A DNA stretch of 20,000 nt. Origin: an uncultured virus (IMG/VR IMGVR_UViG_3300021131_000005) (Duplodnaviria; Heunggongvirae; Uroviricota; Caudoviricetes). Below the pieces are notes generated by a model that ran no database searches, was not told the origin of the DNA, and was given only the letters and a program-made list of their open reading frames with translations. A program made the position numbers and the translations under genes. Below are positions 8,488-20,000 of this stretch, piece by piece. The first letter of the stretch is position 1. Each line of letters opens with the position of its first letter. Where the stretch lies: the IMG/VR virus record IMGVR_UViG_3300021131_000005. One strand, written 5' to 3'.

Positions 8488-8519
8488 TTTGGTAAATTAA
8501 ATATGTATTTATATATTTG
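8488..8519 (+). promoter_or_regulatory. Rightward Bacteroidota-type promoter
   Basis: TTTG(G)-N20-TATATTTG, followed by CAGCG. Confidence 0.75.
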
Positions 8520-8542
8520 CAGCGTATCAAACAAATAAAGTA

Positions 8543-13024: not shown

Positions 13025-13059
13025 TTTTTAACCCCCAACAGAGGTAAATAACAAAAATA

Positions 13060-13094
13060 AAAAAGCCCCGTAATATTATATTACGGGGCTTTTT
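13060..13094. terminator. Bidirectional intrinsic terminator
   Basis: AAAAAGCCCCGTAATA-TTA-TATTACGGGGCTTTTT, perfect 16-bp arms between convergent operons. Confidence 0.9.
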
Positions 13095-13109
13095 CGCTGT
13101 TAGATGCTA

Positions 13110-13298
13110 CTATAATTTAAGTTTTATCCAGTTTAACTTTTCTTTTCTTCGCTGCAAAATATCATAACGTTTAGTTAATTGAATTATAACCCTAGTAGGT
13201 AGGGAGTTGTTTAGTTTCTTTCTTATCTTGTGTTGCTCTGTTTCTGTTATGTGAGATAATCTAAATGCAAGGGGGAAACGATTGTCTTTTCGGGGCAT
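13110..13298 (-). CDS. Hypothetical basic protein
   Basis: ORF track. Confidence 0.55.
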   Translation of the reverse strand: MPRKDNRFPLAFRLSHITETEQHKIRKKLNNSLPTRVIIQLTKRYDILQRRKEKLNWIKLKL

Positions 13299-13300
13299 GA

Positions 13301-13468
13301 TTACTTAGATTCGTATTGTGTCTGATAATAAGCCCTTAATGTTCGCTGCAAGGACTTCTTTTTGTTTTCTGCTGCAAAGGGGTTTTTACACTTTCCCAAA
13401 CGGATGTTTTCACTTATCCTATTAATTTGGGCTTGTAGTTTGTAGGGGTTTATTTGTTGCTGTGCCAT
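13301..13468 (-). CDS. 55-aa protein (MAQQQINPYKLQAQINRISENIRLGKC...), not in ORF track
   Basis: Manual translation; TAATG coupling to the upstream gene. Confidence 0.6.
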   Translation of the reverse strand: MAQQQINPYKLQAQINRISENIRLGKCKNPFAAENKKKSLQRTLRAYYQTQYESK

Positions 13469-13695
13469 TAGTAAGACCTTTCGTTGTGAATAAATCTCTT
13501 TGACCTTTCGGGGTTTTCACCCTTTCTGCTATTCTCGGTAAAAGGCAAATCTATTGGGTATATTTCGTCTAAACGCTGCTTGTCTATCCAAACCCCCTTA
13601 TCGTAATATTTACCCCCTTCGCTATCCATTTTAAAGGGAAGTGATTGCCTTATATTCTTATTCTTTGTGTACTGGGCTACTGATAGTATTGCCAT
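13468..13695 (-). CDS. Hypothetical protein
   Basis: ORF track. Confidence 0.65.
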   Translation of the reverse strand: MAILSVAQYTKNKNIRQSLPFKMDSEGGKYYDKGVWIDKQRLDEIYPIDLPFTENSRKGENPERSKRFIHNERSY

Positions 13696-13709
13696 TGCTT
13701 AATTGGGGT

Positions 13710-13850
13710 TTAAATACCTTTAATAATAACTCTTATCCTTTCTGCGTATTCTTTAGTGATGTATCTACAATGAATGTATCTTACCTTTTCAATCCAAAAG
13801 TAAAAATAGTAGCCTATATCCTTTCTGTAAAATATCTTAGTTGTTTTCAT
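13710..13850 (-). CDS. 46-aa aromatic-rich protein (MKTTKIFYRKDIGYYFYFW...)
   Basis: Manual translation; fills the gap. Confidence 0.5.
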   Translation of the reverse strand: MKTTKIFYRKDIGYYFYFWIEKVRYIHCRYITKEYAERIRVIIKGI

Positions 13851-13857
13851 AAATACT

Positions 13858-15063
13858 CTAGTGTGCTACAAATGTAGCTTTGCGCAATCTGCTTACGAAA
13901 TTGTTTTGCTTTGTTTTTAACTCCCCTTTGGTAGTGATGTACATAGTGGGATATGTTTCAATCTTCGCTGCTTTTTTAGGTGCATTAATGATTATTGGTT
14001 TATGGCTACAAGGGGAAACTAAAACAGTATCAATCCCATTTGTAAAACTAAAAACCCTATCATTCGCTGCAAACATTTGTATATCCTGACCTTTGAAAAT
14101 AGCCAACGATTCAGCTAATAATTTGCCATTAAAGGAAACTTCCATATCAAAACTACTTTCACAATTACAATTTAATCTAGTGTAAGCATCGGTATCGAAG
14201 TCCAAACTTTCAGCACTAATATGTAATTGATTTTTGTAAGCATCCGCCCCATTACTCAAAATAGTAACTATTGGCATATACTTACACATTGCAGAAGGTA
14301 TCATTTGTTTTACAGCCTTAACAAACCCATTTGAATTAAAACAAATAGGCTGCAATGATTCAGTATTAGGTACAACTGCTTTATAGTCTGGGTACTTGCA
14401 ATAGTCATCCTTAAATAGTGCAACTTTCAAATCGTTAAAATACGCTGTTTCCTTATCCACTACTTTTATAGTTAGTGGGGATTCATAGTCAACTTTTGCG
14501 CTGCTTAATTCCTTTAATGATTCAGATGTGATAAGTATTTTGAAAGGGGTTTTGTCGTTTCTTTCGTAACCCCTTTTTTGCCCCAAATAAAGCCTATGAC
14601 TATCAGTTGCCACTACTTGTACACTTTTGCCGTTAAAATCCAAACAAACGCATTGCAATTGTGGTTTTAAGTCGTCCTTGCTTATGTACTTAGCAGCCTT
14701 CTTTATGTCGTCTAATATTTCAGGCACTACTATTACACCCATAATAAATTCTGTTATTTCTACTCTAGTGTTTTTGTAAGGTAGCCCCACTAAATCACAT
14801 AGGGAATAAAAGTAGGCATTATCAATAGGTATGGGGAATTTATAACAACCGTTTTTAGTGGTTACTTTCAAGTCCATTTGGATAATAGTTTTGCCGTTAA
14901 TATCCTTATCAAAATTCTTTTCGATCCCTTGTATTAATTCCCCACTAACTATGTCATTTTTTACCTCAACTAATAGTTTGTGTATAGTAGCATAATGTCT
15001 GCCTACTTCGCTATTCCCCTTTTGTGGGATTCCGATTGCTTTTAAAATTTCGTTGCTTTTCAT
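13858..15063 (-). CDS. dnaN: DNA polymerase III beta sliding clamp-like protein (divergent)
   Basis: ISKDDLKPQLQCV (cf. A..D.R..L.G), VVATDSHRL (VATDGHRL), KYPDYKAVVP (RFPDYRRVLP), MEVSFNGKLL (MEIGFN..Y). Confidence 0.8.
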   Translation of the reverse strand: MKSNEILKAIGIPQKGNSEVGRHYATIHKLLVEVKNDIVSGELIQGIEKNFDKDINGKTIIQMDLKVTTKNGCYKFPIPIDNAYFYSLCDLVGLPYKNTRVEITEFIMGVIVVPEILDDIKKAAKYISKDDLKPQLQCVCLDFNGKSVQVVATDSHRLYLGQKRGYERNDKTPFKILITSESLKELSSAKVDYESPLTIKVVDKETAYFNDLKVALFKDDYCKYPDYKAVVPNTESLQPICFNSNGFVKAVKQMIPSAMCKYMPIVTILSNGADAYKNQLHISAESLDFDTDAYTRLNCNCESSFDMEVSFNGKLLAESLAIFKGQDIQMFAANDRVFSFTNGIDTVLVSPCSHKPIIINAPKKAAKIETYPTMYITTKGELKTKQNNFVSRLRKATFVAH

Positions 15064-15090
15064 TTTTTAGATGTTTTTTTAGATGTGTTA

Positions 15091-15363
15091 TTAAATTTCT
15101 CCTTTTAAAATGACTTTACCATACTCTCTGATTCTGCCATTATCTACATCCGCTATAAATAAAGAACAACTCCCTTTATTTTCACGATTCCAATAATGTA
15201 CGGTCATTATTTCACGCCACCTTTGTTCTGTTTTGACATAATGTTTTTTAGCTTCCGTTTTGTTGGTGAAAAATGATAATTCAGAAAATGCTGTTTCAAC
15301 TTGCTTATCGCCTTTTAGTTTAAAATTGCATCTGTTAACAAATGCACTTACTCCGTAAATCAT
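15091..15363 (-). CDS. Hypothetical protein
   Basis: Track ORF 15091..15399; ATG 15363 (MIYGVSAF) is likelier than the GTG inside a hairpin. Confidence 0.6.
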   Translation of the reverse strand: MIYGVSAFVNRCNFKLKGDKQVETAFSELSFFTNKTEAKKHYVKTEQRWREIMTVHYWNRENKGSCSLFIADVDNGRIREYGKVILKGEI

Positions 15364-15407
15364 AATATTAGTTGCAGTTTTTAAAGTGCTGCGCTGCACC
15401 TTTGTTA

Positions 15408-15629
15408 TTAAATATAATCTTTAGTAAGTTCTTCAAAATAGGGTTTATCTAACCTTCTTATTAAACCCCCTAATGTACCATTATTAATTCTATTACTTAA
15501 TACAAGGGGGGAGCAATAGTTTCTACGCTGCTTCTTATCAGTAAGGCACATGAAACGGGCATAAGTAACACTTGCGGGTTCTTTGCTTAACTCATCGTTT
15601 AGTTTATTTTCTTTCTCTAGTAATGTCAT
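15408..15629 (-). CDS. Hypothetical protein (G.LIRRLD...F motif)
   Basis: ORF track. Confidence 0.7.
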   Translation of the reverse strand: MTLLEKENKLNDELSKEPASVTYARFMCLTDKKQRRNYCSPLVLSNRINNGTLGGLIRRLDKPYFEELTKDYI

Positions 15630-15633
15630 CGTA

Positions 15634-15870
15634 TTAATAAAGTTTATTTGTTTCTAGGGGTTCGATAACAAACTCCCCTTCGCCGTTATAGTTTTGCGTT
15701 TGGTTAATATGGTCTAAATTATACAAGTCATCCTTAGATAATTTTTCCCCTTGTTTCTTTACTTGCTGCCTTACTATTTTTAAGGCATTGCTTTTTGTAG
15801 TTCCTACTCCTAACATATCACGACTAGCGTATGAGTGCCAAGCATCTGTTTTATATACGATGTAAACCAT
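15634..15870 (-). CDS. Conserved Bacteroidota phage early-type protein (VY..Y.TDAWHSY.S...QTQ)
   Basis: ORF track; A-rich leader. Confidence 0.75.
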   Translation of the reverse strand: MVYIVYKTDAWHSYASRDMLGVGTTKSNALKIVRQQVKKQGEKLSKDDLYNLDHINQTQNYNGEGEFVIEPLETNKLY

Positions 15871-15981
15871 AATTGATATTTTTTTTAGTTTTTTTTACTT
15901 TTTTAGTTTGAGCCGTGAAGGTATGCAACCCCGACTTAATAAGTGTTAATCTATTTGTTAAAATAAAGTTAAGTTGTAGTT

Positions 15982-16194
15982 TTATTCGCTGCTTAAATGT
16001 ACTTCACTCATAACTAAGGCAGAGAACTTTTTATCTGTTTTCATTCTTTGCATTATGTCAGATACTAAATGTCTTTTTTCTTGTTCATCTAAACGGTTAT
16101 AATCTTTTTTATCAAATTCATGGGGCAAATATCCCTTTCCACCTAATTTAAAGGCTTTTTTCGCTTCGTTCCCCGCTTCTGTAATTTTGTTCAT
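15982..16194 (-). CDS. Hypothetical protein
   Basis: ORF track. Confidence 0.65.
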   Translation of the reverse strand: MNKITEAGNEAKKAFKLGGKGYLPHEFDKKDYNRLDEQEKRHLVSDIMQRMKTDKKFSALVMSEVHLSSE

Positions 16195-16198
16195 AATA

Positions 16199-16387
16199 TT
16201 AAGATGGACTTATGAATTTATTAATCTCTCCTTTAGCGAATGAGCCTTGATTGGTCTCTACATAGAAATACTCCCCCGTTTTTGTTTTATACTCCCCCTT
16301 TCTTACAATACCATTGTAAATTATGCCAGTATTGCCCATAATAGTAACACTTTGCCCGTCTTTTAAACTTTCTATAATCTTTTCCAT
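16199..16387 (-). CDS. Hypothetical beta-rich protein (MEKIIESLKDGQSVTI...)
   Basis: Track ORF 16199..16486; start moved to 16387 because the upstream part overlaps the hidden lipoprotein gene. Confidence 0.6.
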   Translation of the reverse strand: MEKIIESLKDGQSVTIMGNTGIIYNGIVRKGEYKTKTGEYFYVETNQGSFAKGEINKFISPS

Positions 16388-16427
16388 AATATTAAGGCAG
16401 TTTTGAAGGTCTGCCAACTTGTGAGGG

Positions 16428-16604
16428 TTAAAATGCTCTTTTCCAATTAGTGTGACCGTAATATTTAGCCCAATAGTGGCTATCATTATTCGGGCATTGG
16501 TGCAAGTTTTCCCCGCTGCACCCTGCCAACATTATAGCCATAATAGCCAAACTAATCAATAACGTTATTTGTGCTGCCTTAATGTCCTTTTGTCGCTGTG
16601 TCAT
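16428..16604 (-). CDS. Small lipoprotein, 58 aa (…LLISLAIMAIMLAGCSGENLHQCPNNDSHYWAKYYGHTNWKRAF), not in ORF track
   Basis: Manual translation; hydrophobic helix + canonical LAGC lipobox; ATGA coupling to 16601. Confidence 0.7.
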   Translation of the reverse strand: MTQRQKDIKAAQITLLISLAIMAIMLAGCSGENLHQCPNNDSHYWAKYYGHTNWKRAF

Positions 16605-16786
16605 GCTTTCACGTTTATTAGTTCTTTAATCTTAGCCGTTGCACTATCTATACTCATTCCGCCAAAGTGGTGTGAAGTGCCATTAATACCCACCTGATAA
16701 ACGTCTTTTTGTTTCCAACAATAAACAGAATTTAAACCGTTTTTATTACTGAAACTTTGCGCTTTTTTTCTTTTATCTATTTTCAC
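16601..16786 (-). CDS. Hypothetical protein
   Basis: ORF track (GTG start). Confidence 0.6.
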   Translation of the reverse strand: MKIDKRKKAQSFSNKNGLNSVYCWKQKDVYQVGINGTSHHFGGMSIDSATAKIKELINVKA

Positions 16787-16838
16787 AATTTTTTATTTTA
16801 TCGTTTCCAAAACTTTAAGATGTTCCCTTTCTGCTAAA

Positions 16839-17096
16839 TTAAAGGGCAATAAATCCGTTTAAAAATTCTTTTACTTTAGGTAGTTCCTTTTCTGTAAATA
16901 CTTCGCTAATAAACTGCCTTATTGTTTCTTTTGGGGTTTTCTTGTCGCTGCTTTTGTCATCATAAATGGCAGAATTAAACCGCTTAAATCCGCCTAAATA
17001 TTCAAGTCCCATAAGCCTCACACAAAGTCTTTCACTGCCTACTATATTGTATGTTTTGGCATTGGGTACGTTTTCCGTTATTTTTATGTTATACAT
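16839..17096 (-). CDS. Hypothetical protein
   Basis: ORF track. Confidence 0.65.
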   Translation of the reverse strand: MYNIKITENVPNAKTYNIVGSERLCVRLMGLEYLGGFKRFNSAIYDDKSSDKKTPKETIRQFISEVFTEKELPKVKEFLNGFIAL

Positions 17097-17121
17097 TGCT
17101 TCGCTGTATTAAAGGGGGGAA

Positions 17122-17478
17122 TTAATGCCCGAATAAAATGCAAGTTAAATTTTCGTCCTGAAAGTCTTTAATTAAAGACTTTAGTAAAGGTATTGCAGCA
17201 TTGTATCTTCTGTATCTTTCCCTATTGTGTTTCTTCATAAATTCCAGAATTTCGGCAGGGGGGACTGAAAACAATGGTTTCCCGTACATATCCGTTTCTA
17301 TTTTATCATATCCATCATAAAAATACAATCTTTCAGTATATCTGTCCTTATCTAAGAAGGTATCAAAGAAATTAGATTTGCAAAGGTCTATTTCTGCTAT
17401 TTTACTGAAATATGTCATTCCATATTCAATTTCTTCTTCAAACTTTCTGCCTATAATAAGGCGTGTTTCGTATCCCAT
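17122..17478 (-). CDS. Conserved phage protein (MGYE.RL.I...DLCK...D.YG..L...YRR...FGH)
   Basis: ORF track; recurrent phage family pattern. Confidence 0.75.
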   Translation of the reverse strand: MGYETRLIIGRKFEEEIEYGMTYFSKIAEIDLCKSNFFDTFLDKDRYTERLYFYDGYDKIETDMYGKPLFSVPPAEILEFMKKHNRERYRRYNAAIPLLKSLIKDFQDENLTCILFGH

Positions 17479-17489
17479 AATTTTATTGT

Positions 17490-17720
17490 TTAATAGTCAA
17501 TATCGTTTTCAATTAAAGACTGCTCTATAAGTTCTATCTGCTTACCCAATAGGAATTTATCAATATCCCACCACTCTAATAAGTCAGCATCAAATTTATC
17601 GCTGCCTTCGTCTTTTCTTTTAAGCATAGTATCGTAAGCATCACTTACACTTTGCCTTTCTTCTTTTGCCTTATCCAATTTTCGGAGAAGTGCTGCCCTA
17701 TGTTGCTTTGTCAATTCCAT
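17490..17720 (-). CDS. Hypothetical helical protein
   Basis: ORF track. Confidence 0.7.
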   Translation of the reverse strand: MELTKQHRAALLRKLDKAKEERQSVSDAYDTMLKRKDEGSDKFDADLLEWWDIDKFLLGKQIELIEQSLIENDIDY

Positions 17721-17732
17721 AACTTTACTTTT

Positions 17733-18056
17733 TTACGCTGCCTTTAAATAACTTTCAATATGTTTACCGTATAACTTCATAAGGGTAAGATATACCCGTT
17801 GCCTTTCAAAAGTCCAATGTGCTTTTAATAGTCTTTTCGCTGCCTTTAATTTGTCCGCTAATACTTGACCTTGCATAAGTAGGATAAGAAAATTTTTAGC
17901 CTTATCCCGGGCATCTTTTGCAGCCTCCTTCACTTTCCCTTGCATCTTAGTTATTGCAGTCTTTAACGCTGCCTTTGTCTTGTAAATTTTCCCCGTTGTA
18001 AAGTCTAAATAGCCTACTATCTTAATAGCTATTACCATAGTGCTTAATGTTCTCAT
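17733..18056 (-). CDS. Lys/Ala-rich basic protein (GKIYKT.AALK.AIT)
   Basis: ORF track; A-rich leader. Confidence 0.7.
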   Translation of the reverse strand: MRTLSTMVIAIKIVGYLDFTTGKIYKTKAALKTAITKMQGKVKEAAKDARDKAKNFLILLMQGQVLADKLKAAKRLLKAHWTFERQRVYLTLMKLYGKHIESYLKAA

Positions 18057-18101
18057 TTTTTTCTTTTTTAGTAGGGGATTTGTTACCCCCTTGTTAGATA
18101 A

Positions 18102-18293
18102 TTAGTGCCTATTGTAGTCTAGTGGACAAATAGAACCTTTTACTTCTTTACAAAAATCGTCTGCTATTTGCTTCTCATCCTCTTTAAATTGTCTTTCTCT
18201 CAGTACTAAGTCTTTGCAATAAAATACTACAAAGCCTGATTTTTTAGCTGGGATAATTTCAACCTTCTTTTTTGTTCTTATTGTCTTTGCCAT
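18102..18293 (-). CDS. Hypothetical protein
   Basis: ORF track. Confidence 0.6.
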   Translation of the reverse strand: MAKTIRTKKKVEIIPAKKSGFVVFYCKDLVLRERQFKEDEKQIADDFCKEVKGSICPLDYNRH

Positions 18294-18408
18294 AATTTAA
18301 CCCGTCTTTTTTTTACTTGCTGCGGCTGCAAGGTTTTAATTGTGAAAAGGTTAGTAATAGGCGGGGGTATCGCTCCCCCTTCGCTCTTTGCTGCCTATTT
18401 GTTGGGGA

Positions 18409-18642
18409 TTAATAACAAAACTCTTGTCTTAGTTGACTTCCCTCAAAAAATCCTTTTAAGTCCTTCTTGCTTACTCTTTGGGCTTTATTATTCCAAAAGT
18501 GGAATATTTTAAAATAACCCGCCCTTAGTTCATTCTCTAATACAATACGATTTAAGTCTTCTATGTTACAAAAGAATTGTTTACCCGTGCTTGATACAAC
18601 TTGATAAACTCTACAATTGTTGTCAATTTTTACCGTGTTCAT
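18409..18642 (-). CDS. Hypothetical protein
   Basis: ORF track. Confidence 0.7.
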   Translation of the reverse strand: MNTVKIDNNCRVYQVVSSTGKQFFCNIEDLNRIVLENELRAGYFKIFHFWNNKAQRVSKKDLKGFFEGSQLRQEFCY

Positions 18643-18701
18643 ATTTATTCATTTTTATGGTTAATATATGGCAACTGTTACCGCTGCCATATTTCAGGGA
18701 A

Positions 18702-18974
18702 TTACCCTTCATCAGTTAACCTTAATATCGCTTTTTCAGTTTCCCCAATATTGTAGGATTGAAATACGATACCGCCGCCGTATTGCTTGTTATGAAATTT
18801 TCTACCCCCTATTTTTTTTGCCCTTTTTAATGCAATGTTATAATCGTATCCCATTTTATAGTCGGGCTGCAAAGTGTCATTCCTCGTTAGCAGATTTAGA
18901 TAGTGGCATACATAGCGAGGGTTTCCGTTTGCATCGTTGTTTACTCTCTTAAATTCGATTTTACTTGTACTCAT
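18702..18974 (-). CDS. Conserved phage early-region protein (RVNND.NGNPRYV.H...GG.KFHNKQYGGGIVFQSYN)
   Basis: Motif recognised as a widespread phage early-gene family of unknown function; promoter and A-rich leader upstream. Confidence 0.8.
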   Translation of the reverse strand: MSTSKIEFKRVNNDANGNPRYVCHYLNLLTRNDTLQPDYKMGYDYNIALKRAKKIGGRKFHNKQYGGGIVFQSYNIGETEKAILRLTDEG

Positions 18975-19009
18975 TTTTTTTATTTTTTTATTGTTAATTA
19001 ATTAGACTG

Positions 19010-19017
19010 CAAAAATA
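19010..19017 (-). promoter_or_regulatory. -7 promoter element TATTTTTG
   Basis: Matches TAnnTTTG; ~35 nt upstream of ATG 18974; preceded by the TTAACA box. Confidence 0.6.
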
Positions 19018-19051
19018 TATATAACGCTGCTATCTATTTGTTAAAATTTTG

Positions 19052-19267
19052 TTAATATAAACATGATGGGATATTATACTTTTTAGGACGGTTATAATAT
19101 TCTAGTAAGATGTTTATTTCTTTACTACTCATAACCTCTACGCCTCTATAATACTTTTCGCAAAGTATATGTATTTTTTCGCAAAGGTTTATTTCTCTTT
19201 TCTCTACATCCTGCAATGTTCTGTTAACCATATCCCATAGGTTTGAAGTTGTGCAAATGTTTGTCAT
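19052..19267 (-). CDS. Hypothetical protein
   Basis: ORF track. Confidence 0.55.
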   Translation of the reverse strand: MTNICTTSNLWDMVNRTLQDVEKREINLCEKIHILCEKYYRGVEVMSSKEINILLEYYNRPKKYNIPSCLY

Positions 19268-19274
19268 GCTATTA

Positions 19275-19520
19275 CTATTTTATTTTTTTACTTTTAAATA
19301 AAAAGCTATGTATTTCTAAATGTGGATTAATAACATTATTTTGAACAGTCCTTTTTTTACTTACTGTTTCAATAGGGGTAATAATATCCCCTACATTGAC
19401 ATTTGCGCACATTCCAGACTTATCTCTATTCTTATATACTATTTTACCACAATTAGAAAGGTATCCTTTAAGATTCCAAGTAGTACCTTCTATTGTAGTT
19501 TTTAAATTTACTTTTTGCAT
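19275..19520 (-). CDS. Hypothetical protein
   Basis: ORF track. Confidence 0.65.
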   Translation of the reverse strand: MQKVNLKTTIEGTTWNLKGYLSNCGKIVYKNRDKSGMCANVNVGDIITPIETVSKKRTVQNNVINPHLEIHSFLFKSKKIK

Positions 19521-19530
19521 GATGTTAGTA

Positions 19531-19806
19531 TTAAGATATTTTATAGAAAGTTCTTTTTTGTGTACTTTCGTTAGTCTTAACGATTATTTTTTCGCCGAAC
19601 TGTTCAAACCTATAAATAACGCTTTTTTGAGACATTACACGAATATATAATTCGGACGGTTCTAAGGGTAAGCATTTGGGCAAACATAACTGTACAAACT
19701 TTTGCAGAAAATCCCCTACTACTTTTTTAGTGGTTGCATTCAAATGTATATAATCACTATATGACATTTGGGTAGTGTTAACTTTTGTTAAAATTGTGCT
19801 TTTCAT
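19531..19806 (-). CDS. Hypothetical protein
   Basis: ORF track; A-rich leader and near-consensus promoter AATATTTG at 19838-19831. Confidence 0.65.
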   Translation of the reverse strand: MKSTILTKVNTTQMSYSDYIHLNATTKKVVGDFLQKFVQLCLPKCLPLEPSELYIRVMSQKSVIYRFEQFGEKIIVKTNESTQKRTFYKIS

Positions 19807-20000
19807 TTTTTTTTACTTTTTTAGTACTTGCAAATATTCAGTTAATCAGTTTATATTTCAATCAGTCGAAAATAACGTTAACAAAATTTTAACATATTAT
19901 TATTATCTTTCATTACTCTTTTTAGTCTGCAAACAACTCCCATAATATATATAGTATTAGAACACAAAACTACTTCAATACCTTCACACTATCCTAATCT

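Follow-up and report, generated by a model that had tools for sequence, protein, structure and literature searches.

Why would a virus repeat one six-letter word, in a single orientation, through the small genes of one gene block? The question is raised by a stretch of 20,000 nucleotides (hereafter the window) from an uncultured freshwater virus of the Caudoviricetes (IMG/VR record IMGVR_UViG_3300021131_000005). On the coding strand of positions 13150-19030, the hexamer GCAGCG is present in 17 copies, and a direct count gave 0 in the reversed orientation. The original prediction, made from the sequence alone, had listed these 17 copies (CGCTGC on the + strand) together with four CGCTGT, and the recount reproduced every position. 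It was also right that the block holds no copy of opposite orientation, since GCAGCG is found 0 times on the + strand between 13050 and 19100. Its central proposal, a selected signal overlaid on coding sequence in an early gene block, is supported by codon shuffles, by the motif density of relatives and by the turnover of sites. By analogy with known arrays, we consider it about evenly balanced whether GCAGCG provides Chi-like control sites for a Bacteroidota AddAB enzyme.

A one-way hexamer array overlaid on coding sequence

GCAGCG is the top hexamer of the region, where 0.36 copies are expected from base composition and 0.54 from a first-order Markov model. The enrichment originally claimed is thus upheld, while the figures given for it (about 0.2-0.3 expected at about 31% GC) are replaced, the GC content being 33-34%. 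Codon usage had been dismissed as the cause, and this was confirmed: 5000 synonymous codon shuffles of the 22 block genes, with proteins fixed, gave a mean of 1.27 copies and a maximum of 6, so that none reached the 15 observed in coding sequence, and shuffling the codon order of the block genes gave a mean of 0.68 versus the same 15. Five copies read Ala-Ala, five xGC-AGC-G and five Gln-Arg, with two intergenic, provided that the GTG-start open reading frame (ORF) at 15091-15399 is accepted. The Ala-Ala and serine-type classes agree with the earlier tally, of which the four Gln-Arg and three intergenic copies had to be amended. GCA-GCG encodes 5 of the 11 Ala-Ala pairs of the block, and CAG-CGN 6 of its 10 Gln-Arg pairs.

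Codon use, amino-acid content or repeats could have produced the array without selection, and dense words in several loci bearing TreK-like genes did prove to be of this kind: the striking words of L003, L006, L017, L024 and L060 were rejected as tandem repeats. The GCAGCG copies are dispersed, occupy three frames as well as intergenic DNA and are re-created at new sites in relatives. In addition to the 5000 protein-preserving shuffles of the window, those of the relative segments L087 and L090 never reach the observed counts (15 and 17, respectively). This explanation is already refuted, and the probability left to it is negligible.

Spacing within the array is irregular (99-893, mean 367), with no 10-base helical phase. 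The flanks are A-rich, and no longer consensus is seen across 58 distinct contexts from the window and its relatives. The octamer GCAGCGAA was considered as the longer true unit and rejected, because it accounts for just 6 of the 17 copies. In the pooled relatives, two near-copies are also raised, ACAGCG (19 versus 4.3 expected) and GCAGCA (21 versus 7.2 expected). Left of the array, the recount agrees with the four copies reported for the left 13 kb, of which 8116 is on the - strand and 5346, 8519 and 11008 are on the + strand. The 8519 copy does not lie right after a promoter, as had been stated, since it starts on the last G of the TAnnTTTG element itself, which we take to be the Bacteroidota -7 promoter consensus.

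Density is kept among relatives while sites turn over

The relatives are eight metagenome loci found through the sliding-clamp (DnaN/beta)-like protein of the block, with 33-92% identity and partial redundancy, and all eight carry the array on the coding strand. Among viral contigs, an exact match to the window itself was not found. The clamp-like gene contains three GCAGCG copies and is a marker gene of this phage group. Its product has an N-terminal extension of ~110 aa, is encoded within the early block and has halves that are swapped in mosaic fashion among relatives.

The window and five non-identical relative segments together hold 82 GCAGCG versus 2.9 expected, with 2 reversed. Motif density in homologous regions, a check proposed with the original prediction, is kept at 2.2-2.8 per kb across these segments. 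Alignment of the DNA shows conservation at 23 of 34 site instances, versus ~12 expected from overall identity, an approximate baseline drawn from relatives that are not independent of one another; a further 11 instances occur only in a relative, one being an alignment artefact. In two near-whole relatives, G001 and G002, GCAGCG is dense in the block only. G001 has 10 forward and 5 reverse copies, 10 of the 15 within the first 3.4 kb, and G002 has 13 forward and 11 reverse copies, 9 of the 24 within the first 3.3 kb. Because density is kept while sites are turned over and confined to the block, selection maintains the local density of GCAGCG and not individual positions.

Such a pattern could also reflect a signal on the early transcript, namely antitermination, pausing or sites for an RNA-binding protein. 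The coding strand carries all 17 copies, and the array runs no further than the terminator at 13058-13095, as is seen at the corresponding spot in the relatives; outside the block, 17 of the 19 coding copies of G001 and G002 are sense as well (sense/antisense 5/0 and 12/2). However, shuffled genes gave 6.1/3.9 and 7.0/4.1, which places this excess near the shuffle (17 versus 13 sense, 2 versus 8 antisense). Hence, of the statement that 20 of 21 copies window-wide are transcription-sense, the block carries the figure, and the relatives' counts outside it are near chance. Moreover, no RNA fold common to the 17 contexts was found, the 18682 copy having the clearest folded context, and GCAGCG has no fixed place relative to the starts, stops or frame of the block genes. 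We regard an RNA- or transcription-level signal as very unlikely, and the suggested antitermination or polymerase-loading sites find no support. Promoter, operator or RNA elements of the stoperator, SAS or nut kind were likewise rejected for want of an extended consensus, a fixed place or a shared fold.

Genome build and ends

The leftward block has the appearance of an early or host-takeover-type module (Table 1). G002 encodes a terminase resembling those of Flavobacterium and Cellulophaga phages and a set of replication genes comprising an initiator, a DnaC-like loader, DnaB, SSB and NinG; no DNA polymerase match was found in G002. No match to a single-strand annealing protein, recombinase, RecE or Exo-type enzyme was obtained in 87 of the 89 called ORFs of G002 (all but two short overlapping ones), 20 of G001, 12 of the L090 block and 51 of the window, in a search that may overlook remote homologues. 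At 1308-2594 of the window, a metallophosphoesterase-like gene has a weak "exonuclease" PHROG match. In the large proteins of G002, neither an RNA-polymerase nor a methyltransferase motif was seen, and PDB searches gave no match. G001 (L100:389-9968) also encodes GroEL/GroES, glycosyltransferases and a nicotinamide phosphoribosyltransferase next to a PRTase, a NAD-salvage-like pair.

Upstream of its TreK-like gene, L090 carries 0.8 kb of gene-free, strongly T/G-skewed DNA (L090:1-800), and ~100 bases of this segment are found again, in inverted form, at the far end of both G001 and G002. In L087 and L090, the inverted end segment lies ~140-170 bp before the TreK-like gene. The simplest reading of these assemblies would be that the genome has inverted terminal repeats and that the block lies next to one of them. 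Sequencing runs contained only contigs of related strains (share 0.05-0.09). Gene-free, partly inverted ends of this kind occur here in phages with a terminase and no DNA polymerase match. A similarly built phage, G003 (L012; L265:1-8800, L268), has 123-base inverted ends and inward-reading blocks of small genes, in which the word AGACGG points inward at both ends (9 copies in the left block and 3 at the right end; shuffle test 4/1000).

The TreK-like gene has its counterparts mainly in Staphylococcus phages, which make up 229 of the 233 matching records of cultured phages, and TreK of the Staphylococcus Kayviruses sits within the long terminal repeat. An AT-rich repeated element (TTAACAAAATTTTAAC-like) occupies gaps between block genes at 19032-19055, 15949-15972 and 19878-19897 and is possibly part of an operator or promoter.

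Table 1. Features of the window (positions in nucleotides; strand as +, - or. for none)
Feature	Position	Strand	Remarks
Leftward gene block, 22 ORFs	13110..19806	-	21 ORFs <120 aa; nearly all without family match
Perfect 17-bp inverted repeat, terminator between convergent gene blocks	13058..13095	.	
GCAGCG array (CGCTGC on +)	13150..19030	-	17 copies, exact count
GCAGCG copies 1-9	13150, 13344, 13574, 13966, 14065, 14499, 15392, 15526, 15987	-	
GCAGCG copies 10-17	16514, 16946, 17600, 17736, 17838, 17967, 18682, 19025	-	
Near-copies ACAGCG (CGCTGT on +)	13095, 14443, 16594, 17102 (span 13095..17107)	-	same orientation as the array
Outlying GCAGCG copy overlapping TAnnTTTG promoter element	8512..8524	+	excluded from the array count
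Sliding-clamp (DnaN/beta)-like protein, 401 aa, N-terminal extension	13858..15063	-	below NCBIfam cut-off
Hairpin directly 3' of TreK-like gene	18657..18712	-	z -3.9; 18682 copy in stem
TreK-like protein	18702..18974	-	Pfam PF24229, E 4e-24
TAnnTTTG element before TreK-like gene	19010..19017	-	19025 copy just upstream
Three more ORFs and T/G-rich, C-poor window edge	19052..20000	-	no GCAGCG

Chi words at the ends of cultured phages

Three Chi words were compared, AGCGG of the B. subtilis AddAB, GAAGCGG of the S. aureus AddAB and GCTGGTGG of RecBCD, and ends packed with such words were found in two of the four cultured phages examined. The left terminal repeat of MSA6 (L081:1-8049, 8 kb) holds 18 GAAGCGG, 12 on the top and 6 on the bottom strand; no 7-mer ranks above it in the repeat, four copies form back-to-back pairs, and the next 42 kb contain 0. 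In SPO1, the terminal repeat (L264:1-13185, 13.2 kb) holds 46 AGCGG (29 + 17 by strand), many in back-to-back pairs, at 3.5 per kb versus 0.86 outside. Among the unpaired bottom-strand copies, 5 of 8 lie in the first 1.5 kb, crowding the left end as entry from that end would need. The signal of the window (log10 p -19.5) is close to that of MSA6 (-21.2), versus -6.8 for the best of 72 control scans. No literature report of Chi in Kayvirus or SPO1 repeats, or of the GCAGCG word, was found, although subscription papers or supplements might mention them.

The window resembles MSA6 and SPO1 in having small early genes at what is probably a genome end, and it shares a TreK homologue with MSA6. In the two cultured phages, whose terminal repeats are direct, the density of the host's Chi-like word is 2.2 and 3.5 per kb, respectively. 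Their hosts are Firmicutes, in which the word is polarised in the chromosome (89.7% in S. aureus).

A second likeness is to phages LLS of E. coli and MD8 of P. aeruginosa, described in PMC12315714 as having end-clustered one-way Chi arrays and no recombination module, MD8 retaining NinG; Chi sites of P1 are discussed in bioRxiv 10.1101/2021.07.08.451572. As in these phages, the word is short, GC-rich, in a single orientation and clustered toward one end. Like LLS and MD8, the relatives of the window have lambda-type replication with NinG and no recombinase match. In contrast to all three, GCAGCG is no known Chi, the likely host has AddAB and not RecBCD, and a host-genome signature is lacking. 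The density is also higher, ~2.8 per kb over 6 kb against one per 1.86 kb genome-wide in LLS, and the ends are apparently inverted, against cos or permuted ends in phages of the LLS, MD8 and P1 kind.

The word itself has AGCG in common with AddAB words, and its complement CGCTGC has GCTG in common with RecBCD words. Unlike in AddAB words, there is no preference for G after the hexamer (6 of 58 contexts) and no excess of GAAGCG (7 versus 5.3), so that word likeness is a lead only.

Other words were seen near TreK-like genes. In a 49% GC phage (L038:9776-16800), TGGTGG, which is similar to gammaproteobacterial Chi, occurs 25 times in sense versus 3 reversed from behind the TreK-like gene. Weaker dispersed words (TCCAGG, GGTTAGC, GACAAT, CTTGCCA, GCAGTGG and ACTTACG in L004, L014, L041, L053, L039 and L070) barely exceed the control range.

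A proposed Chi-like array for a host AddAB

The likely host family was assigned from likeness of SSB. At E <=1e-33, the SSB of a relative, which may resemble that of Chitinophagaceae, matches 10 of the 251 genomes of Bacteroidota; the next match is at 1e-18. Five of these 10 genomes co-occur in one family sample, and their 16S sequences are only 80-83% like named Flavobacteriales, Bacteroidales and other loci. A gene for a PD-(D/E)XK helicase-nuclease of AddAB type is present in 5 of 5 genomes of this family (gene presence only), G046 has an addA-addB pair, and RecC was found in 0 of 5.

If AddAB is the reader, the phage would place the word every ~350 bp in the early module beside its genome end, such that an enzyme loading on the free end would meet a site within a few hundred bases. 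At the site, AddAB would stop cutting the 3'-ending strand and leave a RecA-loaded tail. The first genes would be spared, and host recombination would become accessible to a phage that replicates in the lambda manner and lacks its own recombinase. An enzyme approaches Chi from the 3' side, so that one loaded at the end upstream of TreK would recognise 5'-CGCTGC-3' on the template strand; recognition of GCAGCG would instead need ends that arise downstream of the block, or a further copy of the block at the far end. Limitation of spacer uptake is a possible further gain, as Chi bounds AddAB-fed spacer uptake (PMC8860600).

Of the options originally offered, Chi-like sites are thus best supported, by analogy, by the AddAB of the likely host family and by the lack of a recombinase match in the relatives. 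The replichore-skewed GCAGCG proposed as a signature of the host was not found, and several observations weigh against this reading. In 838 kb from five host-family genomes oriented by GC skew, GCAGCG is on the leading strand 248 times versus 278 on the lagging strand, in a test with 99% power for a 60% bias, and its total of 526 versus 561 expected indicates no enrichment; no hexamer stood out in this DNA. In G258, a member with 33% GC, 63 of 100 copies on two contigs are leading among the matches listed, because gene co-orientation is likewise 63%. In members with 40-46% GC, chance GCAGCG is already frequent (every 2.4-4.3 kb per strand) and therefore need not be enriched, whereas a phage with 33% GC must enrich it. 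This mitigation does not extend to G258, with one copy per 27 kb. Among phages, no comparable array was found in 30 viral records with a similar SSB, mostly fragments (positions for 150 of 219 matches; 6 records whole), and no unrelated phage with a GCAGCG array was found among SSB-linked, TreK or listed motif-pair loci. The terminal repeat of T5 has only 2 Chi and Aeromonas PhAER-4 has none, and therefore terminal Chi packing is not universal. Furthermore, the words of MSA6 and SPO1 occur in both orientations, often in back-to-back pairs, whereas the array of the window is strictly one-way. Lastly, the genome end of the window phage probably lies beyond position 20000, as judged from the assemblies of relatives only. 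Overall, the array resembles a Chi array by anatomy yet is not classed as Chi, because one defining feature, the host signature, was looked for and was absent.

Further searches gave a similar picture. Neither the 80 TreK-bearing loci nor, among the matches listed, the 117 motif-pair loci contain a GCAGCG array. The 9:0 copies of G266 were rejected as an array, being mostly in long structural-arm genes, and elemoA, a Flavobacterium phage equipped with Erf and an exonuclease, contains only 2 GCAGCG in 61.7 kb. For longer patterns, 10 complete chromosomes and 2 drafts gave no clear two-arc skew among the matches listed, Myroides coming closest (24 of 35 among those matches). One-strand runs of matches in G010 and G323 were discarded as a listing artefact, 400 kb of G010 being unskewed, and the high ratios of GCAGCG to its reversed control in the host family (up to 12.7) were due to a scarce control word.

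Other directional readers

In the main rival reading, the sites would be bound or loaded by a protein that the phage encodes or injects along with its genome. Such a protein might coat or protect the DNA that enters first, help to draw it into the cell, or shut down the early block at a later stage. Several points would suit it: the word has so far been seen in this lineage only, has no host-chromosome signature and is strictly polar, the similarly built G003 has its own inward word, and the relatives encode proteins of 1500-3000 aa without family or PDB match. Against it, the unit is a hexamer alone that lacks an extended consensus, is neither regularly spaced nor in helical phase and turns over freely, family and profile searches of the block proteins found no candidate reader among them, and the two cultured phages whose ends are packed in this way carry the Chi words of their hosts. 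Sites of this kind are a possible but doubtful explanation. That a machine of this origin, and not AddAB, reads the array as a lineage-specific directional code for uptake or shielding of the first-entering DNA seems to us rather unlikely. If it were so, lineages would have evolved separate words (GCAGCG here, AGACGG in G003), which would form a class of genome-entry signal distinct from Chi.

Another directional machine of the host might be involved, with the copies acting as decoys for type III, ISP or BREX-like enzymes or as translocase loading sites that aid DNA entry. Such enzymes target non-palindromic 6-mers with one A, a form that GCAGCG shares, and restriction pressure appears strong. 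In the window, G001 and G002, the words GATC, GGCC, CCGG and CGCG are almost absent (GATC in G002, 0 versus 197 expected). Yet the phage purges restriction sites and does not add them, such systems are strain-variable whereas the word is kept across relatives with clamps 33-92% alike, and a word of the KOPS type ought to show a skew in host DNA, contrary to the counts given above. In T7, all EcoP15I sites are in one orientation. The polarity of a non-palindromic hexamer is common to both phages, and the window lineage differs by its local enrichment and by convergent copies elsewhere in the genome. T7-style evasion forbids the convergent copies that G001 and G002 hold outside the block, so that restriction evasion by polarity is excluded, and the original prediction was correct that type III-style polarity does not explain the array. 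A host machine of this sort other than AddAB is distinctly unlikely.

Implications for phage entry and Chi discovery

A 2021 survey (PMC8022716) counted five species with known Chi-like words, and a 2010 paper (PMC2887965) described the Chi of the B. fragilis AddAB as unknown. Our literature searches found no Chi for Bacteroidota. As far as these searches reach, Chi arrays are known as a kind, and what is new is this particular word, its link to a probable Bacteroidota host and a strictly one-way array next to apparently inverted ends.

If GCAGCG is indeed a Chi-like site for a Bacteroidota AddAB, the array would supply a six-letter Chi candidate with a predicted strand, open to one biochemical test, and it would indicate that phage ends can expose a Chi that host-genome statistics miss. 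With the counts in MSA6 and SPO1, B. subtilis offers an immediate system in which to test the idea. Should AddAB fail to respond to the word, some new reader would be needed to account for a one-way code under selection in phage DNA as it enters.

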